DNA from: an uncultured virus (IMG/VR IMGVR_UViG_3300021960_000064)
Lineage: Duplodnaviria > Heunggongvirae > Uroviricota > Caudoviricetes
Strand: one strand, 5' to 3'
Virus record (IMG/VR): IMGVR_UViG_3300021960_000064
Length of the DNA: 64,000 nucleotides
Shown: one piece after another, positions 15,943 to 41,246 of the stretch
How the letters are laid out: each line of letters opens with the position of its first letter
Numbering within the stretch: the first letter of the stretch is position 1
Made by a program: the position numbers and the translations under genes
The notes under the pieces: generated by a model
Database searches by the model: none
Seen by the model: only the letters and a program-made list of their open reading frames with translations
Told to the model about the DNA's origin: nothing

Positions 15943-15971
15943 TTTACTTTACTTTAGATCGTTAGTATACT
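15943..15971 (+). promoter_or_regulatory. sigma70-like promoter with GATC at spacer position 9-12
   Basis: TTTACT-ttactttaGATCgttag-TATACT. Confidence 0.75.
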
Positions 15972-16036
15972 ACTAGTATAAAGTAAGTAAGGGCTCCGTC
16001 CTTTTAAAATTAGCTCACTTAATATAGGTAATATCT

Positions 16037-16264
16037 ATGGCTACTAATAAAGCTAAAAAAACTCAGTCTATCGCTCCTAGCGTTAGTACTGGTAAATTAA
16101 CCTTCGTCCCTGGTAAAGCTAGGGCGGATCATAATAACGCTCGTGCTAAAAGCGTTAATGGTTTAACCTACGATCAAGCGTTAGCTCATTATGCTACGCT
16201 CGGTTTTAAAAAGGTTGACCTTAACTACGATTTAAATAAAATTAAATCGCTCAAGTTAGCGTAA
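16037..16264 (+). CDS. Small basic early protein, paralog 2
   Basis: 75 aa; MATNKAK start; nearly identical core to 15426..15695. Confidence 0.85.
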   Translation: MATNKAKKTQSIAPSVSTGKLTFVPGKARADHNNARAKSVNGLTYDQALAHYATLGFKKVDLNYDLNKIKSLKLA

Positions 16265-16270
16265 GCTCAA

Positions 16271-16299
16271 AGGGGGGTCAATAGCCCCCCTCTTTTTTT
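16271..16299 (+). terminator. Rho-independent terminator
   Basis: AGGGGGG-tcaatag-CCCCCCT-CTTTTTTT. Confidence 0.85.
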
Positions 16300-16310
16300 A
16301 ATTTTAATTA

Positions 16311-16439
16311 GACCTGCATGGTCCATGCACCACGATCGGTGGATTGGGATTCTTTGGTTCTTTGGTTCTTGGACCACGATCGGTGGATCATGGTTCTTTG
16401 TCCATATGTTTTGTGCCTTGTGTCTCTGTCCGTGGTTTC
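16311..16439. other. Non-coding TC/TG-saturated block 3
   Basis: ACCACGATCGGTGGAT x2 (16329-16344, 16373-16388), TTCTTTGG repeats, several CATG/GATC; only one TA. Confidence 0.6.
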
Positions 16440-16696
16440 TATATAGGGAACTCTGGAGAGGTCTATGTCCTCATTAAAATCCAACACATGTTTTATCTCG
16501 ACTACACCACGAACCACCCACCACGTACCCTATTACCTCTTCTTAGCCAATAGGTCGCTAATAGCCTAGCCAATAACCATAATAGAAGGAGTAGTGGAGA
16601 GTCTTCAGTCCTTATGCCCTATTGGCATATTGGCTAAAGTGCTTGAAAATTGAAAAAAGATTTATAGTTTTTCCAGATTACTATAATAGAAATGGG

Positions 16697-17020
16697 TTAT
16701 TGAGCTTTAATATACCACGCTGGTAAGTCGTCAGTAGATATTTGAAGGACTTTTTCTTCATCAATAGTGTTAATAACTATCACCGAGGCAACGTCCACTT
16801 CTAAAGGTTCTTCTTGCTCGTTATCATTTAAAAGGTCAAATTCCCATTCGTTATATTCACCCCAAAACCTATCCTCAGCCACTATGGCTTGTTCCATGAG
16901 TTCGTGGCTACCTGTATATAATAGTTCTTTAGTGCCTAGTAGCTCTGTGACTTTTGCGGTAATAAGTTCACTGTCGTTCACCTCATTACCATTTATTACT
17001 TCTAGTTTAAACCAAATCAT
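16697..17020 (-). CDS. Hypothetical acidic protein
   Basis: 107 aa, coupled to upstream gene. Confidence 0.6.
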   Translation of the reverse strand: MIWFKLEVINGNEVNDSELITAKVTELLGTKELLYTGSHELMEQAIVAEDRFWGEYNEWEFDLLNDNEQEEPLEVDVASVIVINTIDEEKVLQISTDDLPAWYIKAQ

Positions 17021-17292
17021 GACATGTTCTGGTGTCTGAATACATACGCTTGGTGTTCATCAGCATAGGTATAGTGGCAGATAAATATATACTCGTCAGT
17101 CATAAAGGTATATAAATGAATACCGTTTACGTCGCCATGGTCTTTGAAGTTATGTTGTTTCATCTTAGCTTCATCAGACAGTATAGCGTTCACAACTACC
17201 GCAATATCTGCAGAGTCATCCATGGCTTCATCAACATAGTCGTCGTGAGATTCCCACGTAAACCAGTCACCAAATTTAATTTTATTGTTCAT
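17017..17292 (-). CDS. Hypothetical protein (likely start MNNKIKFG)
   Basis: AAGGAG RBS and promoter directly upstream of ATG 17292. Confidence 0.65.
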   Translation of the reverse strand: MNNKIKFGDWFTWESHDDYVDEAMDDSADIAVVVNAILSDEAKMKQHNFKDHGDVNGIHLYTFMTDEYIFICHYTYADEHQAYVFRHQNMS

Positions 17293-17325
17293 AACTTTTA
17301 CTCCTTTATAATTAGTTATATAACT

Positions 17326-17354
17326 ATTATAAAAAACATCAAAAGGATGGTATA
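17326..17354 (-). promoter_or_regulatory. sigma70-like promoter with GATG at spacer position 9-12
   Basis: TATACC-atccttttGATGttttt-TATAAT. Confidence 0.6.
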
Positions 17355-17356
17355 GG

Positions 17357-17605
17357 TTAGTCATATATTAAGGAAGCAAGAGTTTTATTATTGTAGTGAC
17401 TATCAATAACATGAATATCAAAATCAAGTATAGGTAGCCACACATCATTAATAATATGAAAAGACTCGGCGAAATCATTAAACGCATTTTCTTTAGAACC
17501 GTGGTCGTCAACAATTCCCATAACAGGCTCATCAGGGTAGCCACGATGCCACCTAAAATCTTCAGGGTTACCATGTTTACGCTTACTCTTTATAAAGTAC
17601 CTCAT
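17357..17605 (-). CDS. Hypothetical protein
   Basis: 82 aa ORF, coupled to upstream gene. Confidence 0.55.
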   Translation of the reverse strand: MRYFIKSKRKHGNPEDFRWHRGYPDEPVMGIVDDHGSKENAFNDFAESFHIINDVWLPILDFDIHVIDSHYNNKTLASLIYD

Positions 17606-17775
17606 AGAACAGTTTGGTCCCAGCCGTCACGCAGTTCTTGTTGCCACATACTAAGCTCGTACACAGCGTTTATCTTGTACATATTATTAGCGAACTCATC
17701 AAAGGTCTCGGCACCTTCTAGAGCAAGCTCAGCGTCTGATTCAAATTGTATTACTAAGTCTTTTAATCTACTCAT
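17602..17775 (-). CDS. Hypothetical protein (57 aa, MSRLKDLVIQFESDAE...), absent from ORF track
   Basis: ATG 17775 with GAGG RBS; TGA overlaps next ATG. Confidence 0.55.
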   Translation of the reverse strand: MSRLKDLVIQFESDAELALEGAETFDEFANNMYKINAVYELSMWQQELRDGWDQTVL

Positions 17776-17938
17776 CTTTTTCCTCGGTTACTGATTCTAC
17801 TTCTACTGAAGTTGATATAGGACTATCGGCACACCAACCATAAACTTCGCCATGTTGTTCAGCGTGTTCTTCATTCTCAGCCTCTACAGTTATGTAGTGC
17901 GTATTAGTGACTATTACTTTTACTTCATACTTTTTCAC
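17768..17938 (-). CDS. Hypothetical protein (56 aa, MKKYEVKVIV...VEAENEEHA), absent from ORF track
   Basis: GTG overlapping the upstream TGA; 'Y.V......V.A.S/N.E.A' motif also in 23233..23544. Confidence 0.55.
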   Translation of the reverse strand: MKKYEVKVIVTNTHYITVEAENEEHAEQHGEVYGWCADSPISTSVEVESVTEEKDE

Positions 17939-18135
17939 ATTAGCCCCTCTAATAAATCACCATAACCCACGGAGTCAGCACCCCACATATCGGCAGCTAA
18001 TTCTTTATAGATTTTTTGGTGTTCTTTATTACCTGCGAGGCTGGTTACTACCTCCTCGCTACCGTCTTCACGTTCTATAATTAAGAACCTAGTGCCACGG
18101 TCAATAGAAAATACTTCATACTTAGTTATACTCAT
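17935..18135 (-). CDS. Hypothetical protein
   Basis: 66 aa coupled ORF. Confidence 0.55.
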   Translation of the reverse strand: MSITKYEVFSIDRGTRFLIIEREDGSEEVVTSLAGNKEHQKIYKELAADMWGADSVGYGDLLEGLM

Positions 18136-18386
18136 GGCGTTACCCTCAATATAATAGGTTTAGCACCTAAGTCTACTTTAATATAGGTCATAGGTAGTTC
18201 GCCGATACCGTCAACTTCTTCAAAGCGTTCACACTCGTAAACCTTAGAAAATGACGTAGTACCCGAACCCATAATTCTCCAAGGCATATCCTCTAGAGCG
18301 TCAACGTTCTTACATATTTGAACGTCGCTACCTTTACCGAATATATCCTTGAAGTTAGTTTTTGAATACGTAATTGTATTACTCAT
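18132..18386 (-). CDS. Hypothetical protein
   Basis: 84 aa; AAGGAG RBS; promoter at 18414-18442. Confidence 0.65.
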   Translation of the reverse strand: MSNTITYSKTNFKDIFGKGSDVQICKNVDALEDMPWRIMGSGTTSFSKVYECERFEEVDGIGELPMTYIKVDLGAKPIILRVTP

Positions 18387-18413
18387 AATTTACTCCTTTT
18401 AAGTTATATATAA

Positions 18414-18442
18414 ATAATAGGTATGATCATTTTCCGTGTAAA
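18414..18442 (-). promoter_or_regulatory. sigma70-like promoter with GATC at spacer position 9-12
   Basis: gactATCc-TTTACA-cggaaaatGATCatacc-TATTAT. Confidence 0.8.
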
Positions 18443-18453
18443 GGATAGTCATT

Positions 18454-18541
18454 AAAATATTTTAAAACGGTCAGACCGTTTGATGTAAAGGGGTAAAGGG
18501 TAGGTAGGGCTAGTTTAATCAACGCCTTAAAAACGCTCACA
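18454..18541. repeat. Dispersed non-coding element, copy 1 (GGGGTAAAGGGTAGG core)
   Basis: Shares core and flanks with 27002..27088. Confidence 0.7.
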
Positions 18542-18560
18542 TTAAGCCCTATATAACCGA

Positions 18561-18752
18561 TCATAACTTACCTTTATAGGAAGCCTTACGCCTTTTAGCA
18601 AGAACTGAGTCGTAACCTTGATCATAATCATGACCATAAGGTCCGTAAAAGTCTGAACCGTTTTTACGTTCGCGACCGTTAGTCGCATCTCTTACTCCGT
18701 AAGCAAAAGCGTTTTCTGCCTGTTGCTCTGGAGTGGGTTTATCATACATCAT
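18561..18752 (-). CDS. Hypothetical protein
   Basis: 63 aa; GGAGG RBS. Confidence 0.55.
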   Translation of the reverse strand: MMYDKPTPEQQAENAFAYGVRDATNGRERKNGSDFYGPYGHDYDQGYDSVLAKRRKASYKGKL

Positions 18753-18754
18753 AG

Positions 18755-18955
18755 CTACCTCCCGATAGTTTTAGTATCTTCTAAAGTTATATATTGGTAC
18801 GCTCCCTTATTATAAATGGGGGCGACCTGTTTCTTACGCACTTCTGCTAGGCGTTGAGCCACCTCATCACCACAAGCGAGACACGTGCGATACCCCAACT
18901 TATAACGGTTGGGGTGTATAGGTTCTTCACACTTTTTACAATAATGATGGGTCAC
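18755..18955 (-). CDS. Small zinc-finger protein
   Basis: CKKC...CLAC, 'APIYNKGAYQYI'. Confidence 0.6.
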   Translation of the reverse strand: MTHHYCKKCEEPIHPNRYKLGYRTCLACGDEVAQRLAEVRKKQVAPIYNKGAYQYITLEDTKTIGR

Positions 18956-19274
18956 TATAATTATGTACTCCTACGCCCATAAAGAACATTTTTGCGGTTT
19001 CTCGTTTAATAAGCTCACCATTGTGCATAACGTTTATCGCCTCGTGTTTATTAGCACTTTCTAAACAGTCAGCACAAAACACTGATTCTTTATTAATACC
19101 TGGGAACTCACTGTTAGTCATAGTTACTAACCATGTATCTAAGGGTAGTGAGCGGTGGCGTTTAACACCGCTAAATTGATTTTGACCTAGTGCTTGACAA
19201 CCGTCACAATAGTCAACATACCGACCAGCAGTAGTAATAGTTACTACTGCGTTATTTACTACGTCGTCACTCAT
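18936..19274 (-). CDS. Hypothetical protein with two CxxC motifs
   Basis: CDGC...CADC. Confidence 0.55.
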   Translation of the reverse strand: MSDDVVNNAVVTITTAGRYVDYCDGCQALGQNQFSGVKRHRSLPLDTWLVTMTNSEFPGINKESVFCADCLESANKHEAINVMHNGELIKRETAKMFFMGVGVHNYSDPSLL

Positions 19275-19531
19275 GACCTTTTACCTAGTTTATATTCAAG
19301 CACGGTAGGGGCATTATTAAACTCATCCCATAGTTCTTGACCTATATCGTCATAGTTTACAACAGCTTTACTATTACAGCGAGTAACGTACTCACCCCCT
19401 ACTTGATTACGCCCTAACCTAGAATGGTTTAACGCCTTACGAGTATGGACATAGAGTCCGTCAGTTTTTAAAGTTAGAAAAAGATTATTTTCTAACTGCC
19501 TAGTACCAATAGTTTTAATTAATTGATCCAT
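19271..19531 (-). CDS. Hypothetical protein
   Basis: 86 aa; GGAG RBS; promoter at 19577-19605. Confidence 0.6.
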   Translation of the reverse strand: MDQLIKTIGTRQLENNLFLTLKTDGLYVHTRKALNHSRLGRNQVGGEYVTRCNSKAVVNYDDIGQELWDEFNNAPTVLEYKLGKRS

Positions 19532-19576
19532 AATACATCTCCAATAAAAGTTATTAACAATTTAATAACTACTTAA

Positions 19577-19605
19577 ATAATATTAATGATGCTTATGAGT
19601 GTAAA
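19577..19605 (-). promoter_or_regulatory. sigma70-like promoter with CATC at spacer position 9-12
   Basis: gattATCc-TTTACA-ctcataagCATCattaa-TATTAT. Confidence 0.8.
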
Positions 19606-19624
19606 GGATAATCATAAATGACTT

Positions 19625-20014
19625 TTATAAGCCATGTTCGTCGTAATATTCAGCAGGACCAGTAACTCCGTTTTCTGATTCTTCAGAGTCAGCATTAAAA
19701 TAAATATGATCTTCATCAGCAGAGTCGACTTGGTCAGGATATTCATTATTACTTACTACTTTTTCTGACCTGAATATATCCGCCATGTGGGTAAACTCAG
19801 ACTTAGCAGTATCACCATAATAATAATGAACTATATAAGCATATTCTTCATCTTCAGCCACCATAATACCTATACCATTTATACCACCTAACTCCTTGAA
19901 GCGTTCTATATTGTTGTTAACTATAGTAGCTATAGATACACCATCGTCCATTGATTGGTAAATATCGTTAGGTATTTCCTCCCAACAGATAAATAATTTA
20001 TTTAACGATTTCAT
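19625..20014 (-). CDS. Hypothetical acidic protein
   Basis: 129 aa, D/E rich. Confidence 0.6.
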   Translation of the reverse strand: MKSLNKLFICWEEIPNDIYQSMDDGVSIATIVNNNIERFKELGGINGIGIMVAEDEEYAYIVHYYYGDTAKSEFTHMADIFRSEKVVSNNEYPDQVDSADEDHIYFNADSEESENGVTGPAEYYDEHGL

Positions 20015-20211
20015 ATTGAATCTGGAAACGGCTTCCAGTAATCGGTGAGTATTGATTTTTTAGTTACGCCATTAGACATAACGCAAGGTTCACAAGGGTC
20101 ACCATTCATTAAGGGTTTATTACTAACAGTGACACAATAACATTCTTTACAACGTTTTTTAAATTTATAATCAGGCACGTTACGGTCTTGAACATATTTT
20201 AATTTACGCAT
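20011..20211 (-). CDS. Small Cys-rich hypothetical protein
   Basis: CKEC..CEPC; AGGAGG RBS. Confidence 0.6.
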   Translation of the reverse strand: MRKLKYVQDRNVPDYKFKKRCKECYCVTVSNKPLMNGDPCEPCVMSNGVTKKSILTDYWKPFPDSI

Positions 20212-20245
20212 TTTATTCCTCCTTAGTTATTTATTTACTATATAA

Positions 20246-20274
20246 ATAATAAGGTTGATGTTAGTGAGTGTAAA
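20246..20274 (-). promoter_or_regulatory. sigma70-like promoter with CATC at spacer position 9-12
   Basis: gactATCc-TTTACA-ctcactaaCATCaacct-TATTAT. Confidence 0.8.
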
Positions 20275-20370
20275 GGATAGTCACATAGGGTGATTATCGT
20301 CAGACATAAACCAAGCAATGAATAGTAGCACAGCTATAATCAAGATGATGGTGTTAATAAGTTGTCCCAT

Positions 20371-20820
20371 TTATTTTTTCCTATCGGTAGTGTGTGGTTT
20401 AGAAACTACTCGGTCACGCAAACCACTGGTGCTGAAACTATGATTTCTAGAGGTGAAGTAAATTTCTCCAGACTCCCTACTTATCTCCATACCTGTAAAC
20501 CCACGGTCTCTGTAGTCATCCCCTACGAATCTTATATCTATATGGGTGGACTCTAATAAATCACAGAGACTCAGTTCGGTATCATAAGGCAGTATTTCAT
20601 CTACATACTTTATGGCTTGTAATTGTACATACCGTTCATACATGGATTGTACAGGTTGGTTCTTTTTCTTTCGATCTATAGTCGGGTCAGTCTGTAGACC
20701 CACAATAAGGTGGTCACAGTTTTCTTTAGCTTCTTTAAGCATAACAATATGACCAGCGTGTAGTAAATCAAACGCACCACAGGTAAATCCTATCTTAGCT
20801 ATCTTTTTTGAATAATCCAT
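20371..20820 (-). CDS. Cytidylyltransferase (glycerol-3-phosphate cytidylyltransferase/TagD-like)
   Basis: 'GFTCGAFDLLHAGH' HxGH motif, 'IVGLQTD', 'R.HSFSTS.LR'. Confidence 0.85.
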   Translation of the reverse strand: MDYSKKIAKIGFTCGAFDLLHAGHIVMLKEAKENCDHLIVGLQTDPTIDRKKKNQPVQSMYERYVQLQAIKYVDEILPYDTELSLCDLLESTHIDIRFVGDDYRDRGFTGMEISRESGEIYFTSRNHSFSTSGLRDRVVSKPHTTDRKK

Positions 20821-21121
20821 TTTCTAGTGTACCTGTACGGTCTTTGATTTCTTCATATGCTGCTAATAGACACTCGTCAAGAGTTAAATCTTTTTGTTTA
20901 GCTAATACAATCAGGCACACGAGACAATCACCAATACCGTCTTTTAGTGACCACATATCATCATATGCTAAAGCCTTAGCAGTTTCACCTACTTCTTCAA
21001 CTAGCTTGAGCATCTGCATTTCTGGTCTAACGTCGGCGGTCAATAAACCACGCATTCTAGCCCACTCTTCAATTTGAAAAACTAACGTACCCATTAATAA
21101 TTGATTATTTTCTAAGCTCAT
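20795..21121 (-). CDS. MazG-like nucleotide pyrophosphohydrolase
   Basis: 'KLVEEVGE...KDGIGD...ECL..AY.EIKDR'. Confidence 0.85.
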   Translation of the reverse strand: MSLENNQLLMGTLVFQIEEWARMRGLLTADVRPEMQMLKLVEEVGETAKALAYDDMWSLKDGIGDCLVCLIVLAKQKDLTLDECLLAAYEEIKDRTGTLENGLFKKDS

Positions 21122-21327
21122 TTGAGTTTACTCCTGTTACTTTTATTCATTTCATTAAAACGATTTAATATCTCGGCTTGTTTACCGCATTGTTCATAGT
21201 CTAGAGGGTCTTTAAAAGCTATACAAATACCATTACCTTCTACTGCTGTCCAGCTTTCAGTGTCATCATTGTATATCCAGTTAAGCCTACGATTTCTAGC
21301 GTAAATACTATCTGCTGTATGTGTCAT
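21118..21327 (-). CDS. Hypothetical protein
   Basis: 69 aa coupled ORF. Confidence 0.5.
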   Translation of the reverse strand: MTHTADSIYARNRRLNWIYNDDTESWTAVEGNGICIAFKDPLDYEQCGKQAEILNRFNEMNKSNRSKLK

Positions 21328-21530
21328 AGACTCTCCAGTATTTCTGTATGAGGTTTTTTGCGTTTATCGCTATACTCATACTCAACTCTATTCTTGTAGC
21401 CTTTGTGCCTAATAACATTTGGCTTACCTATTTCTTCCCTTTGCCAACCTATGCTCGTAAGAGTATTATCTTCTTTCTCTTGTTTTAGCTTTTGGTTTTG
21501 CTCTTCAACTTTATCTTTATACTGTGTCAT
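21324..21530 (-). CDS. Hypothetical protein
   Basis: 68 aa coupled ORF. Confidence 0.5.
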   Translation of the reverse strand: MTQYKDKVEEQNQKLKQEKEDNTLTSIGWQREEIGKPNVIRHKGYKNRVEYEYSDKRKKPHTEILESL

Positions 21531-21934
21531 GAATGTAACCCCTCTAATATATCTACAACAAGTTTAGGTTCTTGCCTTGTACCTTCTGGTATAAATCTAA
21601 CTAACTCGTCTTCTACCCTTTTTATATCTAGGGTAGTACCTGTAGTATCACCTTCTTGGTCATACCCAGCTATAACGGACTTACCCACGTAAAACTGGTG
21701 TTTACCAGCGTAATAACGGTCGTCAATACTTACCCAATGAAATAATCTTTGGGGGTCACGAAACAAACCGTCGTCATCTAGTATTAACATATTCTCGTCA
21801 TCTAGATTTACAATAGTTATAATAGAACAATCCATAAACTTTTTACACTCGTCTATAAAGTTCTCGCTATCATACTCATCTCCCCTGATTTTTTCTTTAT
21901 AAGGGTCAATAGTAATTACTCTTAATTTACTCAT
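21527..21934 (-). CDS. Hypothetical protein (DUF3846-like)
   Basis: 'IDP...LDDDGL....G..VI.G.D.EGD' pattern; AGGAGG RBS. Confidence 0.55.
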   Translation of the reverse strand: MSKLRVITIDPYKEKIRGDEYDSENFIDECKKFMDCSIITIVNLDDENMLILDDDGLFRDPQRLFHWVSIDDRYYAGKHQFYVGKSVIAGYDQEGDTTGTTLDIKRVEDELVRFIPEGTRQEPKLVVDILEGLHS

Positions 21935-21968
21935 ACTTGCCTCCTACGGCTTTTATTATTAAAAATTA

Positions 21969-21997
21969 ATAGTAGGTTTGATGTTTTATAATGTAAA
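21969..21997 (-). promoter_or_regulatory. sigma70-like promoter with CATC at spacer position 9-12
   Basis: gagtATGc-TTTACA-ttataaaaCATCaaacc-TACTAT. Confidence 0.8.
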
Positions 21998-22039
21998 GCA
22001 TACTCAGGGGCGTCATTACCCCCGAGTCTGCAAAGGTAG

Positions 22040-22312
22040 TCAAACAATCTCAAGAGTCTTGACACGTTCAATGTCATATTTGAGATCTGTCATGGTATAC
22101 AACCCAGTAGCTATCGCTTCTTTGATTGTTTTACCACTCACTGCTTTAACACGCTCATTGTTGCTTTCAGCAGTTACTTTTTTCCCAGTCGCTTTGACTA
22201 CAGCTTCTGGGTCGTATTTGCCAAACTTCACTTTTGGTGTTACTTTGGCAACCGCACTTTGTTTCTTAGCAGAAACAAGTGAAGGTTTTTTAAGGGCTGT
22301 TGTTTTAGCCAT
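22040..22312 (-). CDS. Small basic protein, distant paralog 3 of the N.R.K...DLxYD family
   Basis: 'NNERVKAVSGKT..EA...G.....DLKYDI'; own promoter (22363-22391) and downstream hairpin (22002-22027). Confidence 0.7.
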   Translation of the reverse strand: MAKTTALKKPSLVSAKKQSAVAKVTPKVKFGKYDPEAVVKATGKKVTAESNNERVKAVSGKTIKEAIATGLYTMTDLKYDIERVKTLEIV

Positions 22313-22404
22313 AATATACTCCCGTGTATACTAACTAGTTTACGAAATTATAAACTATATATAGGGTATATACGCTCAGTATAAATGTAAAGGATAATCA
22401 GAAA

Positions 22405-22740: not shown

Positions 22741-23000
22741 AGTCCTCGCACTCTAGCACAGAGTCAAGCGTGCCATCTTTATTAATAGTATAAGAATTAG
22801 AAAATTTATGACAATTAAATTCATCTTCTTTAGCATGGGCATACCCACAATGAGTACAAGTACTTCCTAATTCTGTAGTCATGATTCTTCCTCAGAACAA
22901 TCAGGGCAAGGTTGTTTGTTAGACCAAAGCCACGTTTCTTGTTCTTCATCTCTACGCAGATCAACTGTAAAACCTGAGCCATAACATTTAGTACACTCGC

Positions 23001-23204: not shown

Positions 23205-23232
23205 AAGTTACTCCTTTTTAGTTATAAATTAA

Positions 23233-23544: not shown

Positions 23545-23568
23545 GTTTATTCCTTATGTAAAATTAAG

Positions 23569-23642: not shown

Positions 23643-23794
23643 AATACTGTTTAACTTGCCGACTTTGCCAAACAAAATAGGTAGGTAGTCAAGCTAATAA
23701 ACGGAAAAACTTTCTAGGGGGGAAGTTTAACCCTTAACTACCTATTTATATTAAGCCTTAAATCTTAAAAGAAATAAAGGACAGTGGGGTAAAT

Positions 23795-23990: not shown

Positions 23991-24036
23991 CTAGTAGTAT
24001 TAAGCCTACCATCGTAAATATTGTAAAGCATGGTGT

Positions 24037-26962: not shown

Positions 26963-26991
26963 ATATTAATACTGATCTTATACGAAGTATA
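26963..26991 (-). promoter_or_regulatory. sigma70-like promoter with GATC at spacer position 9-12
   Basis: TATACT-tcgtataaGATCagtat-TAATAT. Confidence 0.6.
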
Positions 26992-27001
26992 TAAAAATCT
27001 A

Positions 27002-28977: not shown

Positions 28978-29006
28978 ATATTAGGGTAGATCAACTAATG
29001 ATAAAA
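28978..29006 (-). promoter_or_regulatory. sigma70-like promoter with GATC at spacer position 9-12
   Basis: gattATCc-TTTTAT-cattagttGATCtaccc-TAATAT. Confidence 0.7.
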
Positions 29007-29064
29007 GGATAATCACTAAGTTTTTTAAGACGCTGTTTGAAAAAAATATGTGCAAAAATTTTGG

Positions 29065-29687: not shown

Positions 29688-29928
29688 TTTTTCTCCTATT
29701 ATGCTCTTCTTGAGCTTCTCTTTTTTGTCTAGGAAGGTAATCTTCCCAACACCTTAAAACAATTAACTTTTTTTCACAATCTGTAAAAGTATTCCAGTCT
29801 CTTATTTCTGAAGCAGTTCTACCACAACCTTTACAAGTTCTGGTCATGCCATAAGTGACTGTGCACACACCGATACATGGAGAGTTAGCTAACCCTGTAG
29901 TTTCATGTAGCCTTGTTTGTGACATCAT
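29674..29928 (-). CDS. DUF1289-like Cys-rich protein
   Basis: 'SPCIGVC.....CKGCGRT..EI..W'. Confidence 0.7.
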   Translation of the reverse strand: MMSQTRLHETTGLANSPCIGVCTVTYGMTRTCKGCGRTASEIRDWNTFTDCEKKLIVLRCWEDYLPRQKREAQEEHNRRKNELV

Positions 29929-30223
29929 TTTTACCTTTTATAAGCCGAACGTTTTTATTCCTAAGCCATTCTCGTAAAAGTTTGTTCCTTTCTATTGTAC
30001 TAAGGTTTGTGTCTTGAAGTAAAGTTTTATGTTTTTGAGTATACATGTTATATCCTGCGTAATAATCACCGTTGCCTAACTCATTAAACCTTACAATCTG
30101 CCAAGCCCTCTGTTTAGTCATGTTATAGCGTACACCTATTTCTTCAAGCGTGCACTCACTATTGAGTGAAAGCATAAATATTTCAAAATATTTTTTTCGT
30201 CTATCTGTTCTTTTACCTACCAT
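29903..30223 (-). CDS. sigma70 region-4-like HTH DNA-binding protein
   Basis: 'TLEEIGVRYNMTKQRAWQI'. Confidence 0.65.
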   Translation of the reverse strand: MVGKRTDRRKKYFEIFMLSLNSECTLEEIGVRYNMTKQRAWQIVRFNELGNGDYYAGYNMYTQKHKTLLQDTNLSTIERNKLLREWLRNKNVRLIKGKNDVTNKAT

Positions 30224-32099: not shown

Positions 32100-32180
32100 T
32101 ATCCTCTAACTTTGATGTAGATCAAGACAGCCATAATAATGTTAAATAATAAAAATAATCCCACAACTATACCTATAGCC

Positions 32181-33195: not shown

Positions 33196-34211
33196 TACTT
33201 TTCCTTGTTTTTGATCGCTTTATTTAGCCAGTCAAACCCAGCAGTGCACCAATCAGTAGCCTCACACCTTTGAACTTCAACCAACGCCTCTTCGTACTCT
33301 TCTTTCTTATAACAGTACCAAGCATCCTGCAGTGAACAGGCTACGTCGGTAAAAAAATCATCCGTAAATTCCATTTCTTGAAAAGGTTTACGGTCCAAAA
33401 AATTAACTAAATCTGTATCCCATGTAAAAGAATCTACTGACATCATAGGATAAGGATTAATAGATTTATTTTCGTATGGGTTAATACTTTCTTTCATATT
33501 GTAGTAATCAAAAGCATCCTCTGCTTCTAATTTAGCATGCATGTCCTCAAATACATCAGTGTATGCATGGAAACTATCACTTATTTGAGTATACTTACCC
33601 ACATGCAACATTAAAGCACTAGCCACATACTCATGTAACATAGACATATGAACTGCATTAGCACCAAACGTTCCCCAAATTATATCATTTGACCTATTAC
33701 TTACTGTCATTAACAACTCATCATCTCGTACTTTAAAATAGATAACAGTATTACAAGGAACATCAACACCTGCTCTATTTAAATCAACTAACGGATCCCA
33801 CATTTGAACAACGCAACGTCTATCGTTAGGATCTGCTTGTAATCTTTGAATAACTACTTCTATTTGATCACCGCCAAAGTGTTCACGCCACCTATAACCA
33901 TAGGCACCGTGTAAAACAACACCATCATCACTATATTCTTTCATGCGTTTATTGTATTTAACCACATAATCTAAATCGTTACGACCGCCAAGCATCCATA
34001 AACTTTCCATAAAATGGAAGAAAGGATTAGCTTTACGAATAGGTTCGAATAAAACTCTTTCAGTAGGATTATGATATACAGTAGCCACAGGACACGGAGC
34101 TTCTATAACTTGACCTACACGACTACCTTTGACATCATCTCTAAACTCATTGAGTACGTCTAGACCTCTTATAAAACCATCATTTACATTTCTACAATTA
34201 ATAACTAACAT
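33195..34211 (-). CDS. Thymidylate-synthase-family enzyme, probable dUMP hydroxymethylase
   Basis: 'GAYG.RW...DQ', catalytic 'PCN', 'RSNDIIWG...AN' (Asn at the dUMP-specificity position), 'H.Y'; modification-cluster context. Confidence 0.8.
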   Translation of the reverse strand: MLVINCRNVNDGFIRGLDVLNEFRDDVKGSRVGQVIEAPCPVATVYHNPTERVLFEPIRKANPFFHFMESLWMLGGRNDLDYVVKYNKRMKEYSDDGVVLHGAYGYRWREHFGGDQIEVVIQRLQADPNDRRCVVQMWDPLVDLNRAGVDVPCNTVIYFKVRDDELLMTVSNRSNDIIWGTFGANAVHMSMLHEYVASALMLHVGKYTQISDSFHAYTDVFEDMHAKLEAEDAFDYYNMKESINPYENKSINPYPMMSVDSFTWDTDLVNFLDRKPFQEMEFTDDFFTDVACSLQDAWYCYKKEEYEEALVEVQRCEATDWCTAGFDWLNKAIKNKEK

Positions 34212-34220
34212 TCATATCTC

Positions 34221-34994
34221 CTAAAATAGTTCACCGTTTTCAGCACCTTGTTTTAATGCTTTTTTCCACATAACTTTTACGTCCTTACGAATCGCACCAC
34301 CCCAAGCAGTTTTAGTTTCTTTTTCTACTACTGTTACTACCTCGGGGTGTAACTTAGCTAATAACTCTGCACCTTCGGACTGCACATCTAAAGTACGCCA
34401 CTCACTACAGCCACCAGCAGCATTAGAACTACCTTGACCTTGAGCATAGTAATAACTTATCTTACTAGGATATCCTTTTTTAAGAAGTTGTAAATTAATA
34501 TCAAAATCTTCCATGACTCTAGTTCTTGCTAACTCTACACCGTCAAACTTATCTAAGTTGTAGGCTAGTAACCTCATGTACCTTGTAGTTTCTACTGATA
34601 GAGCCTCAACTCTATTGTTGCCTTCCCTAGCACTTACGCCACAGTGAGCATAGTCATCAAGCCATACATCTAATAGCCCAAATAACGCAGGGTATTCCTC
34701 AGGTTCAAGGTATCTTAAATGCCAGTCGTTAGTAGCTTTACGAATATAGAAACGTAAGTCATCATCTAACATAACTATTTTATTGTCGTCAGTGTTGTCA
34801 TGAATAAACTTACGCTTAGTAGCTATATCATGAACGGTGTCATCACATACCATAATTTTACAATCATAAGCTGAGTATAAATCTTTCTCATGCTCGTCTA
34901 CTACTAGTGTTACCTCTTTGCGTAATTCTTCTGGAAAGAAAGACAAGGTTACTTGGCTGTCTGCCCTACCTCTTGTAGGAATAAAAATTCTCAT
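34221..34994 (-). CDS. GT-A glycosyltransferase (TET-associated/GREB1/JGT-like)
   Basis: 'IFIPTRGR', 'MLDDD', 'EDFD..LQ', 'NAAGGC'. Confidence 0.75.
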   Translation of the reverse strand: MRIFIPTRGRADSQVTLSFFPEELRKEVTLVVDEHEKDLYSAYDCKIMVCDDTVHDIATKRKFIHDNTDDNKIVMLDDDLRFYIRKATNDWHLRYLEPEEYPALFGLLDVWLDDYAHCGVSAREGNNRVEALSVETTRYMRLLAYNLDKFDGVELARTRVMEDFDINLQLLKKGYPSKISYYYAQGQGSSNAAGGCSEWRTLDVQSEGAELLAKLHPEVVTVVEKETKTAWGGAIRKDVKVMWKKALKQGAENGELF

Positions 34995-35839
34995 TTATTT
35001 ACCTTATATTTTGCACGTGGTCTGCCTTCACCCAAACGTGTACGTTCATATTTATCGAACTCGCAAAGGCAGTGTTCAATATCTCTCATTTCTAGTGGTA
35101 GCATATGCCCTTGTAAATATTCAGGGGAGCAATCTAGTAACACTTTCATCTCAAAATTTAATTGTGGCTTCTTAATCGTTTTATTAAGTTCTCTATGGTG
35201 TATTCTATTTAAGCCACGCTGAGCTCCAGGTCCAGGGTTAGCCCAAGTCATAATATCTTTAGCGTTTCTTAACCACTTAGTGTGACGTAAATCAGTCACT
35301 ACCTCGTAAGCCATGAACCCGCTAAACCCAGCGTGTTTTTGATACCCTTTCCATGTTTCTTCTAACGAATCTTTTATCATAGGTGGGTGGTGTTCATATA
35401 AAGGTGTGAGTATTTTATCTATAGTTTGTTCTATTTTAGTACCACCTAACGTGCCTGTCAACATGTACGCACCAGTATATACTTTTTCTTTTCTATCCAT
35501 TCTACCTTGCATTATAGCTTTTAAACGTTTAGGATTCCAATGCTCAGGAAAACCTAACTCTTCTAAAGTGTCTGGCCAATTAATTTGCCTAGCCATAGAC
35601 ATAGCAAAAGGTAGGTTAGGGTGGTCGGCATAAGGTTCTCGCCAGTTGACTCGTATCCATTCTGTAACTCTATCTAGTTCACGATATACATTACAAAAAC
35701 TATACTCAGTTAGTATGGCATCACTAGTCCACGGATAAGACACGCCATTTTGGCGACGTAGATATACAATATGACGTTCGTTTAAATAATTAAAAAACTT
35801 TTGTATTTCTTCTTGATTCATACTGCTTCCTTTACCCAC
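34991..35839 (-). CDS. aGPT-Pplase1 / 5hmdU DNA kinase helical domain protein (stand-alone)
   Basis: 'ERH.VY..R....PWT.D.IL..Y.FCNVYRELDR', 'GFMAYEVVTDL', 'GPGA.RGL', 'IEHCLCEFDKY'. Confidence 0.8.
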   Translation of the reverse strand: MGKGSSMNQEEIQKFFNYLNERHIVYLRRQNGVSYPWTSDAILTEYSFCNVYRELDRVTEWIRVNWREPYADHPNLPFAMSMARQINWPDTLEELGFPEHWNPKRLKAIMQGRMDRKEKVYTGAYMLTGTLGGTKIEQTIDKILTPLYEHHPPMIKDSLEETWKGYQKHAGFSGFMAYEVVTDLRHTKWLRNAKDIMTWANPGPGAQRGLNRIHHRELNKTIKKPQLNFEMKVLLDCSPEYLQGHMLPLEMRDIEHCLCEFDKYERTRLGEGRPRAKYKVNK

Positions 35840-36312
35840 CAGTTAGGTTTAGGTGTACATTTATTCCACTGGGCGTAATGCTTTTCGTTAATTAAATAAT
35901 TACGATAGGCTTTTACTGGGTCAGAGTCTTTGTACTGGTCGGGCATAGCTTGGGGCATGGGAGTAAGACCAATATCAGGCATACCTACAGGTGCTTGACA
36001 TAACTTATCATTAAGTTTAACAAAACTAAGGTGTTGCCTATCGTACCTAGTTTCGTATTCTTTACATAAAGCATAAAAATGATAGTAAAGCCACGTATAG
36101 TTTTGTACTGATTCCCTAGCCCATATAGTACAAGGGTGATTAAGATAGGCTTTTTTATAAATACCGTTAAGGTCACACCACTCCTCACCGTTATGTACAC
36201 GGTGGGCAGTTGAAAGCATTTGAGCACTTTCTAAAGGCATTTTGACTACTAGTTTATCTGGTAGACAGATGGCAGCTTTAGCTGGGTCTGTATTTACATA
36301 AAATATATTCAT
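35818..36312 (-). CDS. Pyrimidine-dimer DNA glycosylase (DenV-like) family protein
   Basis: 'MNIF...D...AA....DK.VVKM.LESAQMLS', 'NHPCT.W', 'AMP.QYK..D.V.AYR.Y'. Confidence 0.7.
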   Translation of the reverse strand: MNIFYVNTDPAKAAICLPDKLVVKMPLESAQMLSTAHRVHNGEEWCDLNGIYKKAYLNHPCTIWARESVQNYTWLYYHFYALCKEYETRYDRQHLSFVKLNDKLCQAPVGMPDIGLTPMPQAMPDQYKDSDPVKAYRNYLINEKHYAQWNKCTPKPNWWVKEAV

Positions 36313-37865: not shown

Positions 37866-39367
37866 AACATATCCTCTGTAAAATCATGAGCGTCTAGAGT
37901 TTCATCTCTATACTCAAACTCAGGTATGTACCAGACGTTAGTACCCCTACCTTTTAAATTCCAGAACACATGTTTAGCGTTAAGGTCTCTTAGTTTACTG
38001 GCAATCTTATTTGTTTCTAGTTCCGTAAACCTGTGTTTAATAAGAAACTCTTTTAAGTCTTTTATTCTAAAATAGGTTTTACCTTCTTCAGTGAATGGTT
38101 TACCTAATAATACTTCTTCCCTTGTACTAGCTTGAGCTAGGTCACTACAGAAAGATTCTAGTAGCTCAATAAACTGACCGTCTAATGAAACATCTGTACT
38201 AACTTCTATTATTTCCATACCATTGTCCATAAGAGTTTGTATTTGTGCTTGCCATGCACGTTCATTAGTTCTAGGTGGCATAATATTTAAAGTTTCCATA
38301 CAACTACGTTGAAACTTAGTTTGATTTTGTAGTTGTTCAGTAGTAAGTTCAAGCCTTTTATCATCAATAGATAAAAACCAAAGGGGTGGCTTAGAATCTA
38401 ATTTAGCTAGACTAGAAAAAGTAGGTGCAGTGTTGCCTTTACCTACGCCAAACTTACACGTTCTACATTTTTGTACGTCGCAGTAAGAACGGATAGGTTC
38501 ATCATTACATTTATAGTTATATTCTTTTTTATCTAATGTGCTAATTAAAGTTAGTACTTCTTTAGCTGGTAAAGGTGGGCTTACAAATTTACGATTATAT
38601 TCTTCTATGTCAGTTTGCCATACGTCAGGAGAAGCTTGTTTTAAATATACCCCCACGTTAAACAAACCATTATTACGAGTACCCTCAGGAAAACCCTGTT
38701 TGAGTAATGTTTTTAAACAAGGTGGTCCACCTTCCATTTCCTCTAGTTCTGGTACGCAAAGTTCTAGTAACTCTTCGCCAGTTACCTTACGACTATTAGC
38801 AAAAGCAATAAACTGCTCAGGAGTAAGCGACTCACCCTTAACATTAAACGCATATCTTATAGAAGTTTCACCACCAAAATATGGCATGTTCAACCAGCTA
38901 CCTATATCACCACGGTCAACTAATACTTCCCTTTGTTTAGGAAATATTTCTACACCGCCATAACCAAGACCTGCTGCTAACTCTCTAAGTTTATCTTGCA
39001 TATCTCCTGCACTTACCCAATCAGTAGTAAAACAGAAAATATGAGCACCACCACTTTTACTTCTACAAACTACTAAAGGTACTTTAAAAGATTCTACTTT
39101 CTTTACTAACTCTGGTAAGTCTAAGGGATAAGTATCTACATCAACTACTCCCCACTTAACTAGGTTATCTTCATTGATAGGAATTATACCTAGCCCAAGT
39201 TTACCTTCAAGATGTGACTTCCAATTATCTAAATTGGCTCCGATAGTTTTAATTGTTTTGGCTACGCCTTGTTGTTTTTGACCTGTGTTTTCACTATTGA
39301 TAGTGAAAGTACCGTGAGCTCTTTTTGACCCTGCAAATAACTCACTAAATTGTTCTACTAAATCCAA
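37862..39367 (-). CDS. Archaeo-eukaryotic primase (primpol) with PriCT-like domain
   Basis: 'DVD', 'RSKSGGAH', 'LNMPY', 'PPC....EGTRNNGLF'. Confidence 0.75.
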   Translation of the reverse strand: MDLVEQFSELFAGSKRAHGTFTINSENTGQKQQGVAKTIKTIGANLDNWKSHLEGKLGLGIIPINEDNLVKWGVVDVDTYPLDLPELVKKVESFKVPLVVCRSKSGGAHIFCFTTDWVSAGDMQDKLRELAAGLGYGGVEIFPKQREVLVDRGDIGSWLNMPYFGGETSIRYAFNVKGESLTPEQFIAFANSRKVTGEELLELCVPELEEMEGGPPCLKTLLKQGFPEGTRNNGLFNVGVYLKQASPDVWQTDIEEYNRKFVSPPLPAKEVLTLISTLDKKEYNYKCNDEPIRSYCDVQKCRTCKFGVGKGNTAPTFSSLAKLDSKPPLWFLSIDDKRLELTTEQLQNQTKFQRSCMETLNIMPPRTNERAWQAQIQTLMDNGMEIIEVSTDVSLDGQFIELLESFCSDLAQASTREEVLLGKPFTEEGKTYFRIKDLKEFLIKHRFTELETNKIASKLRDLNAKHVFWNLKGRGTNVWYIPEFEYRDETLDAHDFTEDML

Positions 39368-39386
39368 CAGTTTCTCCTTTAAAAAA

Positions 39387-39455
39387 GCTAGTGTGGTGAG
39401 AGCCCTAACTGGAGGACAGGAGCTTGGAGGCTCTACACCTTACAGCATCACTAGC
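39387..39455 (-). ncRNA. Structured RNA motif, copy B
   Basis: GCUAGUG/CACUAGC and GGUG-AGAGCCU/GGGCUCU-CACC stems, UGUCCUCCAGU loop. Confidence 0.65.
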
Positions 39456-39493
39456 AAGACTGAAATAAATCCCAAGCCCTGTCTAACAGATTA

Positions 39494-40276
39494 TTAGAAT
39501 GGTGCTTCTGACGTACTTTCGTTATCATTTGACTGGGATAAATTTACTTCACCCACAGTACTAGCAAAGTCTTTTGCTGCTTGATAGAAGAACATTTCAT
39601 CTTCTCCTAACGGTCCATCTAATGTTATATTCCAACCAAACCAAGTACCACGGTCGTTAGACTCAGCTTTGGTTTTCATAACATACTTATGGCTAAAACT
39701 TGCAGGGGTAAACACTTTATCTCCCGAACGCATTTTTATACTCGCCATAACAGAGTTCCAAGTACGAGACTTTTTAAGCTGAGTACCAGCCATAGCAATC
39801 ATCGCACTGTCATAACTACCGTCTTCACTCAAAGACAACACAAAGTGTGTCGCTGAAGTTTGTATATAGTTACCATTCTCTAACATATCTCTACCCATGT
39901 TATCTTTAGTAGTTTTAGACAAGATACTAGCGTCATCGTGTTGAGCTACTAGCCCACCCCCAGACTCTCTTGGTCCCCACTCTAAAAATAAACGCTTATA
40001 AGCCACAGGTAATGCTACCAATGGATTATCGTTTGTATAGAGTTTACCAGTGACAGTATTTATAATGTCACCAGCACTTGCACCTTCGACATACTTACCG
40101 TCGCTCTTCATTACCTCTGGGCTCATAGCCTGAAGTACTTTTAAGCGAGGTATAGTAATATCCTCGGCAGTCAACGTTTCTAGCCCACTGTTAGCATCTT
40201 CTATAAAAGCAGATGGTACAGCTACACTAGTATTTTCTTTTTCGCTTATAGCGTTTTCACTTTTTTCTTTACTCAT
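39494..40276 (-). CDS. Putative ssDNA-binding/annealing protein
   Basis: 'IPRLKVLQ..SPE', acidic tail ending 'EAPF'; replication operon. Confidence 0.6.
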   Translation of the reverse strand: MSKEKSENAISEKENTSVAVPSAFIEDANSGLETLTAEDITIPRLKVLQAMSPEVMKSDGKYVEGASAGDIINTVTGKLYTNDNPLVALPVAYKRLFLEWGPRESGGGLVAQHDDASILSKTTKDNMGRDMLENGNYIQTSATHFVLSLSEDGSYDSAMIAMAGTQLKKSRTWNSVMASIKMRSGDKVFTPASFSHKYVMKTKAESNDRGTWFGWNITLDGPLGEDEMFFYQAAKDFASTVGEVNLSQSNDNESTSEAPF

Positions 40277-40806
40277 TTTTTTATTACCTTAGTTTTTTGA
40301 CCTATGTAAACATTAAAAGTTTCTAAAGGCAGGTCGGAACCTTTTTCCACTTGTTCCCTTACAAACGCTTTCAACGTCATAGGTTCGACATGCTTTTTTT
40401 GAGCCGTCTTATACCCATCTGTATCTAGAGTTTCTAAGAGCTTCTTAGCAGAGTCGTCTTCTTCCCTGCCAAAACTTACTGAAACTGTGTTTTTAATAAT
40501 ATCACTAAAGCCATTTTCATCTAGCCAAGCGAATGCTTCTTCACGGTTTTCATCTGTTATACGTGCTGAATAATAAGTTGAGGTAGTGATTTTATTACCG
40601 TCTTTAAGGGTAATTTCACTTAAACCTAATTCACTCAGCATATTAGGTATAATTATTTCGCTTAACTCTCTGGTCTTAGCTTTTAATTTACCCATTTGTT
40701 CTTCTAAATCAGCAAACCTAGACAATAGTTCGCCTAGCTCTTCTGATCTGTTAGTTAGTTCTTTTAAACTAATGTCGTTTATATTTTTTTCTTCTGGTTC
40801 AAACAT
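40273..40806 (-). CDS. Conserved replication-module protein
   Basis: 'AFAWL..NG..DIIKN.V......VEPMTLKAFVRE'. Confidence 0.6.
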   Translation of the reverse strand: MFEPEEKNINDISLKELTNRSEELGELLSRFADLEEQMGKLKAKTRELSEIIIPNMLSELGLSEITLKDGNKITTSTYYSARITDENREEAFAWLDENGFSDIIKNTVSVSFGREEDDSAKKLLETLDTDGYKTAQKKHVEPMTLKAFVREQVEKGSDLPLETFNVYIGQKTKVIKK

Positions 40807-41110
40807 TTGTAGTTACCTCCACGCAGTAATATTGATGTTCTCGGTTATCCCACTTTAATAATTTAGCCCTACCTCTATTATTTTGTAAAGCAAAATGTAC
40901 GCATACACCAATCGCAGCAGGATCACCTATTAAAAGTAAATAGTCATCATCGGAAAAGTCTTTAAGTTTTTTACGAACCATACCAACAGTTGGTCCAGGG
41001 CTGAACATTAAATCAGGGTTGTCACCAAGTATAAAATCAAACTCACCATACTTTGAAGCAGAGAGAATGTTTTTATTTGCACTTGGCTTTTGAACTACAT
41101 GTACTGTCAT
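40799..41110 (-). CDS. Hypothetical protein
   Basis: 'A..YG......L.DF..DDYLLLIGDP'. Confidence 0.6.
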   Translation of the reverse strand: MTVHVVQKPSANKNILSASKYGEFDFILGDNPDLMFSPGPTVGMVRKKLKDFSDDDYLLLIGDPAAIGVCVHFALQNNRGRAKLLKWDNREHQYYCVEVTTNV

Positions 41111-41217
41111 CTTGTTTCTTTTATCTTAAAGTTGGGCTACTTTTTACAGTAGCCCCATATTCACGGGAGATAACTATGAATAATTAATTACCTATATATA
41201 AATAATTAAGTAAATAA

Positions 41218-41246
41218 ACTATACGCCTGATGTTATAAAAAATAAA
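41218..41246 (-). promoter_or_regulatory. sigma70-like promoter of replication operon, CATC at spacer position 9-12
   Basis: TTTATT-ttttataaCATCaggcg-TATAGT. Confidence 0.65.

Follow-up and report, generated by a model that had tools for sequence, protein, structure and literature searches.

A four-base box at a fixed spacer position in predicted sigma-70-type promoters of a marine podovirus clade with a thymidine hypermodification gene cluster

Predicted promoters in a 64,000-nucleotide stretch of DNA from an uncultured tailed phage (Caudoviricetes; IMG/VR record IMGVR_UViG_3300021960_000064), referred to as the window throughout its full length, carry a four-base box, S-A-T-S (S being G or C), in the spacer between their -35 and -10 elements. 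The box exists, its position is fixed at -21 to -18 (spacer positions 9-12), and it is conserved while the other spacer bases drift. Because of their -12/-11/-7 signature, the sites are assigned as sigma-70-type promoters, predicted to serve the non-structural (early/middle) genes of an HTVC023P-type podovirus. The box is interpreted, with moderate confidence, as a clade-specific core-promoter element that the polymerase would read as sequence or shape. A sequence-only reading of the same DNA had proposed a promoter switch read through DNA modification, and this and other explanations are weighed below.

All 11 promoter sites listed in the sequence-only reading align as sigma-70-type promoters, with a -35 element, a 17-bp spacer and a -10 element. 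They are numbered here by the first base of the -35 element, the earlier coordinates having given the low end of each -10 element. S-A-T-S occupies spacer positions 9-12 in ten of the 11 (GATC 4, CATC 4, GATG 2): GATC at 15943 (+ strand) and at 18442, 26991 and 29006 (- strand), CATC at 19605, 20274, 21997 and 41246 (- strand), and GATG at 17354 and 24027 (- strand). As had been noted, the remaining site at 22391 keeps only the GA of the box and reads GAGC, and the 24027 site has a poor -10 element, CTTAAT. The description of the other elements also holds. The -35 element is never TTGACA, being TTTACA, TTTACT, TTTATT, TTTTAT, TATACC or TATACT, and 8/11 sites match the upstream pattern GAnYAT[C/G]C exactly or nearly so. 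At four sites (T)GAyTATCC abuts TTTACA exactly, and degenerate versions are found at others. Allowing up to three mismatches, GAYTATCCTTTACA has 29 matches in the window, compared with 16.9 +/- 3.6 in shuffled sequence (0/100 shuffles reach 29). The promoters at 18442, 19605 and 20274 cluster together and are clearly paralogous. The predicted promoters are as follows, the 24027 site being listed later with a second class to which it belongs.

18414..18451, - strand: promoter TGA(-44..-42) ... CC TTTACA N8 GATC N5 TATTAT, box 18425-18428; exact GAYTATCCTTTACA match, 27 nt upstream of the start codon region
19577..19614, - strand: promoter TGATTATCC TTTACA N8 CATC N5 TATTAT, box 19588-19591; from -35/-10 alignment and upstream-pattern scan
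20246..20283, - strand: promoter TGACTATCC TTTACA N8 CATC N5 TATTAT, box 20257-20260; from -35/-10 alignment and upstream-pattern scan
21969..22006, - strand: promoter TGAGTATGC TTTACA N8 CATC N5 TACTAT, box 21980-21983; from -35/-10 alignment
22363..22400, - strand: promoter with the box reduced to GAGC, TGATTATCC TTTACA N17 TACCCT, box 22374-22377; from -35/-10 alignment and upstream-pattern scan
28978..29015, - strand: promoter upstream of the DUF932 operon, TGATTATCC TTTTAT N8 GATC N5 TAATAT, box 28989-28992; orthologues in relatives
17326..17363, - strand: promoter TGACTAACC TATACC N8 GATG N5 TATAAT, box 17337-17340; from -35/-10 alignment
26963..27000, - strand: promoter TATACT N8 GATC N5 TAATAT, box 26974-26977; GATC in 4/4 orthologue variants
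41218..41255, - strand: promoter TTTATT N8 CATC N5 TATAGT, box 41229-41232; in a 447-bp divergent intergenic region ahead of the replication operon, CATC being retained in loci L251 and L259 and GATT found in contig G003
15934..15971, + strand: promoter GATCATGC TTTACT N8 GATC N5 TATACT, box 15957-15960; sole + strand member, predicted to drive small + strand genes from 16037

Several controls were used to judge whether the box could have arisen by chance. Across the window, S-A-T-S tetramers have ordinary observed/expected ratios (GATC 0.89, CATC/GATG 1.20, CATG 0.90). In intergenic DNA of the window, read on the gene strand, the distance from S-A-T-S to TAnnnT peaks at 9 (equivalent to N5), where there are 9 cases; each other distance from 4 to 24 has 0-5. 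The enrichment at a fixed position on which the sequence-only reading depended is therefore present in this DNA: [GC]AT[GC]-N5-TAnnnT occurs 9 times against 1.14 +/- 1.06 in dinucleotide shuffles, none of 500 reaching 9. Genes were called crudely as longest open reading frames (ORFs), and "intergenic" is therefore approximate. The same test, which is independent of the -35 element, gave distance-9 counts of 5, 9 and 6 in three related contigs (G002, G003 and G004) against shuffle means of 1.42, 0.87 and 0.57, reached by 7, 0 and 0 of 500 shuffles respectively. After pooling and dereplication of 47 loci of the clade, distance 9 accounts for 44 cases against 3-29 elsewhere, in counts that are not fully independent since the lineages are related. 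As a control, 76 loci (L174-L249) of other marine phages sharing a cytidylyltransferase gene contain 12 distance-9 cases in total. A collection scan with TGAYTATCCTTTACA returned 100 single matches on unrelated contigs and none with several; these were taken as chance and not used.

Related phages provide a view of the box under a selection of sites that is blind to the spacer. A PolA (family A DNA polymerase) search yielded 48 loci, and five further contigs (G002-G006), all of which encode the kinase described below, were examined whole. A matrix trained on the 11 sites of the window, with the whole spacer masked and a score of at least 10, was run on G002, G003 and G004; G005 and G006 were omitted from this count as they largely duplicate G003. 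S-A-T-S stands at spacer 9-12 in 12/31 of the hits on the gene strand and in 0/24 on the opposite strand. Over 37 non-redundant sites, the information content is 0.71, 0.77, 0.82 and 0.93 bit at the box positions, compared with 0.03-0.34 bit at the remaining spacer positions and 0.09-1.5 bit at the -35 positions. The -10 signature of sigma-70 (group 1) promoters, T-12, A-11 and T-7, is found in 34, 35 and 35 of the 37 sites, at 1.2-1.4 bits each, and the -35 element is conserved at T-35, T-34, T-33, A-32 and C-31. Two further features are conserved, G-43/A-42 (26 and 34 of 37) and C-36 (32/37). Within the box the best-kept position is C-18 of the non-template strand (26/37). The runner-up base at -43 is C, so that S-A recurs at -43/-42 and at -21/-20. 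The conserved blocks, centred at -42.5, -32, -20.5 and -10.5, follow one another at intervals of roughly one helical turn and occupy a single face of the DNA.

The -35 element of these promoters is TTTAC, TTAAC or TATAC at a spacing of 17 bp, with G-33 in 0/37 sites picked by a matrix that was itself trained on G-less sites; TTGAC is also absent from all 29 box-anchored sites. In relatives it is often TTAACC or TATACC, and because of this variation the box is no less stable than the -35 hexamer. The box and the -10 element persist at sites with a poor -35 element (TATGGG, TTTTAG, TCATAT). Tandem box-plus-(-10) units 23 bp apart are found in G004 (locus L253, 16489-16540) and in L312 (7612-7660), with the layout CATC N5 TATTAT N8 GATC N5 TAATAT, in which the -10 element of the first unit doubles as the -35 element of the second. 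The TG of an extended -10 element is not conserved at -15/-14 (0.07 and 0.13 bit over the 37 sites). A promoter for an extracytoplasmic function sigma factor (TGAAC ... GATC) was considered and dropped, as the window sites lack AAC (TGAyTA) and always have TAyTAT, and upstream TGAAC occurs in lineage G003 only.

The variation of the box was examined in 61 distinct high-scoring sites, which form 29 orthologue groups and, with each variant counted once per group, give 35 variants. These comprise GATC 11, CATC 9, GATG 2, GAAT 2 and ten other tetramers once each; 22/35 are S-A-T-S and 13/35 are not. The sequence-only reading had described free interchange of C and G, and this applies to one end of the box only. 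Among the 22 S-A-T-S variants G:C is 13:9 at the first base, as claimed, whereas C:G is 20:2 at the last base, so the motif is really S-A-T-C; C is also the last base in 8/10 of the S-A-T-S sites in the window. The lack of CATG was dropped as evidence for half-sites, with 0 seen and only 0.8 expected from the marginals (first-base C 9/22, last-base G 2/22), and a CATG site in L251 and L252, apparently at the start of a mini-ORF, was not counted as a promoter. Orthologous promoters retain the central AT while adjacent spacer bases change. In seven close relatives, orthologues of the 29006 promoter have GATC, GATG, CATC or CATA as the box, with invariant -35 and -10 elements and an upstream block that varies only in two bases at its far end, a pattern indicating that the outer box bases change rapidly and the central AT persists. 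GACC is also found at orthologous box positions. In lineage G003, box sites no more than 120 nt from a gene start comprise 4 GATC, 3 CATC and 1 GATG.

The genome in which the box occurs has a G+C content of 37% and nearly all of its genes on the - strand. Pfam searches of the window identify podovirus structural genes, PolA, a primase and a helicase, with four modification genes between the helicase and polymerase genes:

33198..36312, - strand: predicted thymidine hypermodification cluster, whole (Pfam PF03013, PF18723, PF20691, PF00303)
33198-34211, - strand: thymidylate-synthase-like protein (PF00303, E 2e-21)
34224-34994, - strand: TAGT-type glycosyltransferase (Pfam)
34994-35839, - strand: 5-hydroxymethyldeoxyuridine (5-hmdU) DNA kinase (PF18723, E 4e-45)
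35821-36312, - strand: pyrimidine-dimer-glycosylase-fold protein (Pfam)

The window PolA is 54% identical to that of phage 023Pt_psg01, 49% to those of Pelagibacter phages HTVC027P and HTVC023P, and ~39% to those of M6-like Pseudomonas phages, and the kinase is 42% identical to the M6 kinase. The gene set is that of the M6/ViI type, a thymidylate-synthase-family dUMP hydroxymethylase and a 5-hmdU DNA kinase adjoining PolA. We infer that the window comes from a marine podovirus of the HTVC023P type, within one of the clades of PMC9599517, and that its host is Pelagibacter-like. HTVC023P-type pelagiphages share with it the genome type and a thymidylate-synthase-plus-kinase/aGPT-PPlase cluster adjoining PolA; the word promoter has 0 occurrences in the paper describing them (PMC9599517), and the box is limited to one subclade of the cluster-bearing phages. 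A near-identity DNA search of phages with window positions 15000-35000 gave zero matches. Pfam searches of the 94 window ORFs scanned detected neither a methyltransferase domain nor a phage sigma factor or TF1-like protein, and Rfam at the gathering threshold gave 0 matches over the whole window. PHROGs searches with 30 small proteins returned nothing bearing on transcription, only a RusA-like resolvase and a weak hint of a DksA-like zinc finger. Two genes of the 2OG-Fe(II) oxygenase family (24040-24744 and 24920-25558, - strand) adjoin the gene for the small terminase; recent work describes phage thymine dioxygenases that prefer NTC or NTG (PMC13229309).

The relation between the box and the modification genes can be followed in relatives with and without the kinase. 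A PF18723 family search found matches in G002 and G003 and none in 023Pt_psg01 or G007. The sequence-only reading had named the same motif in relatives lacking the cluster as grounds for refutation, and on this count it is not refuted: the box is absent from these two kinase-less genomes, with 0 cases against ~0.75 expected. In 80 pooled loci of the 023Pt_psg01 clade there is likewise no peak, with 14 cases at distance 9 against 3-20 elsewhere. The kinase-less relatives are distant (PolA 54% and 47% identical) and, judged by eye, apparently have TTGAC-type -35 boxes, and the absence of the box from them is therefore confounded with phylogeny. Closer comparison is offered by five complete or near-complete sister genomes from the kinase search (G010-G014), whose PolA is 77, 66, 65, 61 and 68% identical to that of the window. 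The kinase, glycosyltransferase and thymidylate-synthase-like genes are common to 5/5 sisters and the glycosylase-fold gene is found in 4/5 (no match in G013). Their box counts are 0, 0, 5, 2 and 3 against 0.6-1.5 expected, marginal only in G012 (11/500 shuffles) and G014 (40/500), and S-A-T-S occurs in 1/15 of their TT[GTA]AC-N17-TAnnnT sites. The modification cluster is thus not sufficient for the box. The nearest outgroup, G010, has TTTACA-N17-TATTAT promoters with CACC, CAAT or ACTT at the box position (by eye). Apparent true members in sister clades include CATC AACCC TATACT (G012) and GATC AACCT TAATCT (L266, L268), and the box module may be older and only amplified in the clade of the window. 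The use of TTGAC versus TTTAC as a marker of kinase-bearing phages was dropped, the counts being too small.

Palindrome usage also differs with the presence of the kinase. T-free 4-bp palindromes are nearly purged from the window (observed/expected CCGG 0/31, GGCC 7/65, GCGC 2/53, CGCG 8/32). CCGG and GGCC are similarly depleted in G002-G004 and G010-G013, and much more weakly in G014; GCGC and CGCG are near expectation in G002 and G011. The kinase-less 023Pt_psg01 and G007 keep T-free palindromes, and 023Pt_psg01 has 0 CATG against 162 expected. Kinase-bearing genomes tolerate CATG, and the window also retains GATC. This pattern fits a modification of thymine that would protect T-containing sites, including the TG in CATG, leaving only T-free sites to be avoided.

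Candidate readers of the box among phage proteins were sought in the window and its relatives. The sequence-only reading had put forward a small protein with a helix-turn-helix (HTH):

29906..30223, - strand: 106-aa HTH protein, sigma-70-region-4/YlxM-like (Sigma70_r4 E 0.022, 14.7 bits, below the 24.1 cut-off)

Its gene lies just downstream of PolA. Two of its 32 homologues carry PF04545 and four are named YlxM-like by the Joint Genome Institute, the HTH stretch is invariant, and the protein is plausible as a DNA binder. Its proposed role as box reader is weakened by its distribution, which does not match that of the box: four sisters in which the box is rare (G011-G014) have the gene, and G010 lacks it. 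Genes found only in the box-bearing genomes (the window and G002-G006) lie at 14393-14864, 15426-16264, 18427-19274, 23236-23544, 29677-29928, 43003-44343 and 51116-51719; they are absent or barely present in the five sisters and the kinase-less relatives, and include 29677-29928 (DUF1289) and a 112-aa protein with weak zinc-finger hits. The small proteins confined to box genomes include those of 29677-29928, 23236-23544, 18939-19274 and the small + strand genes. Pfam, PHROGs and profile scans found no recognised DNA-binding domain in the clade-specific proteins.

The reading of the box as a core-promoter element, given moderate confidence, is based on the conserved blocks spaced one turn apart on one face, on C-18 as the best-kept base, and on the weak -35 hexamers that accompany the box. 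These promoters combine a -10 element TAyTAT, a G-less -35 element (C-TTTAC-like), S-A at -43/-42 and a "-20 box" S-A-T-C at -21..-18. The likeliest reader would be the host RNA polymerase holoenzyme, with readout at about -18 to -21, where sigma-70 and the beta-prime zipper come close to the spacer. In that role the box would resemble an "extended -10" placed far upstream, helping promoters whose -35 element is weak, and would stimulate initiation. The strong bias of its last base fits sequence readout better than a symmetric readout of two modified thymines. In E. coli, sigma-70 is sensitive to the sequence of the spacer through R451, a residue located beside -18 on the non-template strand (Singh et al., 2011; PMC3130263), so that the spacer around the best-kept base of the present box matters there as well. 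The E. coli case differs in its modest effects and in having no known conserved tetramer, whereas here a box at -21..-18 matches the -35 positions in information and is found in one phage clade only. Extended -10 (TGn) promoters similarly have an extra element upstream of the -10 element that can replace a weak -35 element; their TG is 1 bp from the -10 element, whereas the present box is 5 bp upstream and TG is not conserved. Several points weigh against a core-promoter element. We know of no bacterial promoter class in which -21..-18 holds a conserved tetramer. That G and C are used almost equally at -21 (13:9), with C as runner-up at -43, is odd for direct base readout; it is poorly explained by sequence readout and well explained by the idea of a thymine followed by G or C (TS). 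Sister phages, presumably on related hosts, are mostly without the box, and reading by the host polymerase therefore needs differing hosts or promoter strategies. The -35 statistics partly reflect the matrix that picked the sites, and later matrices were partly trained on the box, the spacer columns being unaffected.

The explanation originally proposed, a switch read through modification, would have the box set a thymine in TS context on both strands, hypermodified in virion DNA and not in fresh copies, with the polymerase or a factor reading the difference as a temporal switch; it is considered unlikely. Parts of it hold up in the literature. TS is found in 57% (M6), 58% (ViI) and 50% (phi W-14) of restriction-resistant sites (Flodman et al., 2019; PMC6449724), evidence that comes from resistant restriction sites only, with unpublished TG modification by the M6 kinase mentioned, and hypermodification is termed post-replicative (PMC8989533). 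With E. coli RNA polymerase at Pveg in vitro, 5-hydroxymethyluracil (5hmU) templates gave 350% of the transcription of natural DNA, and 37% after treatment with 5-hydroxymethyluracil DNA kinase (5-HMUDK) (Vanikova et al., 2019; PMC6457204). In SPO1, DNA containing 5hmU is required for middle/late transcription and for the binding of TF1 (as cited in PMC6449724). These systems resemble the window phage, with its predicted 5hmU-derived bases, in that such bases change promoter use elsewhere; they differ in that the effects at SPO1 and Pveg are global to the template, with no fixed modifiable promoter position described; among the window ORFs scanned, neither a phage sigma factor nor a TF1-like protein was found. 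The window itself contributes the kinase cluster and the arrangement of predicted TS thymines in the promoter alignment, which concentrate at -44, -42, -38, -28, -22, -20, -19 and -17, are absent from -37..-31 and are rare (<=10%) in -16..+1; S-A at both -43/-42 and -21/-20 gives a template-strand T in TS context. The kinase-less relatives are without the box, and tolerance of CATG in kinase-bearing genomes hints that TG thymines are protected. Against this, the modification is predicted from genes, a TS on both strands would let both ends of the box vary equally rather than at 20:2 for the last base, the five sisters have the same cluster with few box sites or candidate promoters bearing S-A-T-S, about a third of the clade promoter variants lack S-A-T-S, the TS-free -10 region simply follows from its A/T-only composition, and the box-less relatives are much more distant. 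A fuller form, in which S-A-T-C and the S-A at -43/-42 would mark thymines decorated by the kinase pathway, with promoters firing differently on hypermodified parental and on fresh 5hmU DNA as an epigenetic timer, is similarly improbable. An operator, formed by the box and perhaps the TGA block 22 bp upstream and bound by a small phage protein that would shut off or boost the promoters later, is possible though rather doubtful. The GA at -43/-42 and the GA at -21/-20 are two helical turns apart, GATC is palindromic and the common variants retain one perfect half, and the candidate binders are the 106-aa HTH protein downstream of PolA or one of the small proteins confined to box genomes. The late promoters of phage P1 have an activator site centred near -22. 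On the other hand, a typical operator is longer than four bases, no flanking dyad is conserved, the HTH gene has the mismatched distribution given above, and the clade-specific proteins are without a recognised DNA-binding domain. Promoters controlled by Dam methylation at GATC include those of IS10 transposase, P1 cre and Mu mom, where the sites overlap the -10 or -35 element or a regulator site and must be GATC. A comparable coupling of promoter activity to adenine methylation in the window phage, for which GATC within the promoter, its place as the commonest variant (11/35) and its predominance in lineage G003 could be cited, is very unlikely: CATC is nearly as common (9 variants), GATG, CATA and GACC also stand at orthologous positions, Dam sites do not include any of these four, the scan of 94 window ORFs turned up no methyltransferase domain, and GATC is ordinary in frequency genome-wide. 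Alphaproteobacteria are known to use GANTC rather than GATC methylation, which also speaks against it. The HTVC023P-type relatives are classified as phages of an alphaproteobacterium (PMC9599517). That the box has no function, being left over from promoter duplication or an artefact of site picking, is strongly disfavoured. Some window promoters are clearly paralogous and the sites were first chosen by eye; nevertheless the flanking spacer differs between paralogues and orthologues while the box stays, the excess survives both spacer-blind selection and the -35-independent distance test in four lineages, and the 76 control loci from other phages gave a total of 12 distance-9 cases.

A second promoter-like class, TTTACA/TTTATT N8 GAnn TAGGG CTAAAT (or TAAGG CTTAAT), is conserved in all six clade genomes and includes the 24027 site:

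23999..24036, - strand: second-class promoter-like site ATGC TTTACA N8 GATG GTAGG CTTAAT, box 24010-24013; conserved in L102 and L118
40861..40898, - strand: second-class site TTGC TTTACA N8 GAGG TAGGG CTAAAT, only the GA of the box kept; present in the window and G002-G006
23750..23787, - strand: second-class site TTTATT N8 GATT TAAGG CTTAAT; from matrix scan

Two second-class copies head a 492-bp ORF-less stretch (23545-24036, - strand), possibly the gene of a non-coding RNA; positions 23795-24007 are covered by contigs of RNA libraries, which have no power to show a transcript. The RNA evidence comes from eight runs, of which the RNA-labelled ones match 0.05-0.09 of sampled words, as contigs only, from which transcription starts cannot be read. 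Four RNA runs gave 16 short records, some of which cross promoters (e.g. 18308-18444 and 23936-24007) and may therefore be DNA or read-through.

Other elements were seen near these promoters. A 14-bp palindrome, AGTAAGTACTTACT, has three exact copies at 15258-15271, 15279-15292 and 15893-15906 (0.04 expected), where transcription diverges and beside the sole + strand box promoter; it is also seen in sister G010 and is a candidate operator or bidirectional terminator stem. The same long hairpin is predicted in two 5' leaders, at 39362-39470 (- strand) ahead of the primase gene and at 23540-23650 (- strand) ahead of a 103-aa gene. Its outer stem is CUAGUG...CACACUAG, its inner stem has compensating changes between the copies, and its loop, UGUCCUCCAGU, is identical in both and includes the anti-Shine-Dalgarno sequence CCUCC. 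The hairpin has no Rfam match and may be a translational control element.

The spacer of a promoter is usually treated as sequence-neutral, and here a four-base spacer element equals the -35 positions in information and persists throughout an entire subclade of seemingly very abundant ocean phages. A search of the open-access literature found no published description of such a box in pelagiphage or other phage early promoters. Direct reading by the polymerase would make the box a new promoter element and a means of approaching transcription in hosts that are difficult to cultivate. Reading through thymine hypermodification would make it the first natural promoter position devoted to such a mark, and hypermodification would have a regulatory role besides anti-restriction. 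The effect of hypermodification on promoters was described as still to be studied by Flodman et al. (2019; PMC6449724), and the box promoters offer concrete templates for the in vitro tests that those authors called outstanding. Either way, they provide a usable promoter model for annotating uncultivated genomes of this clade.

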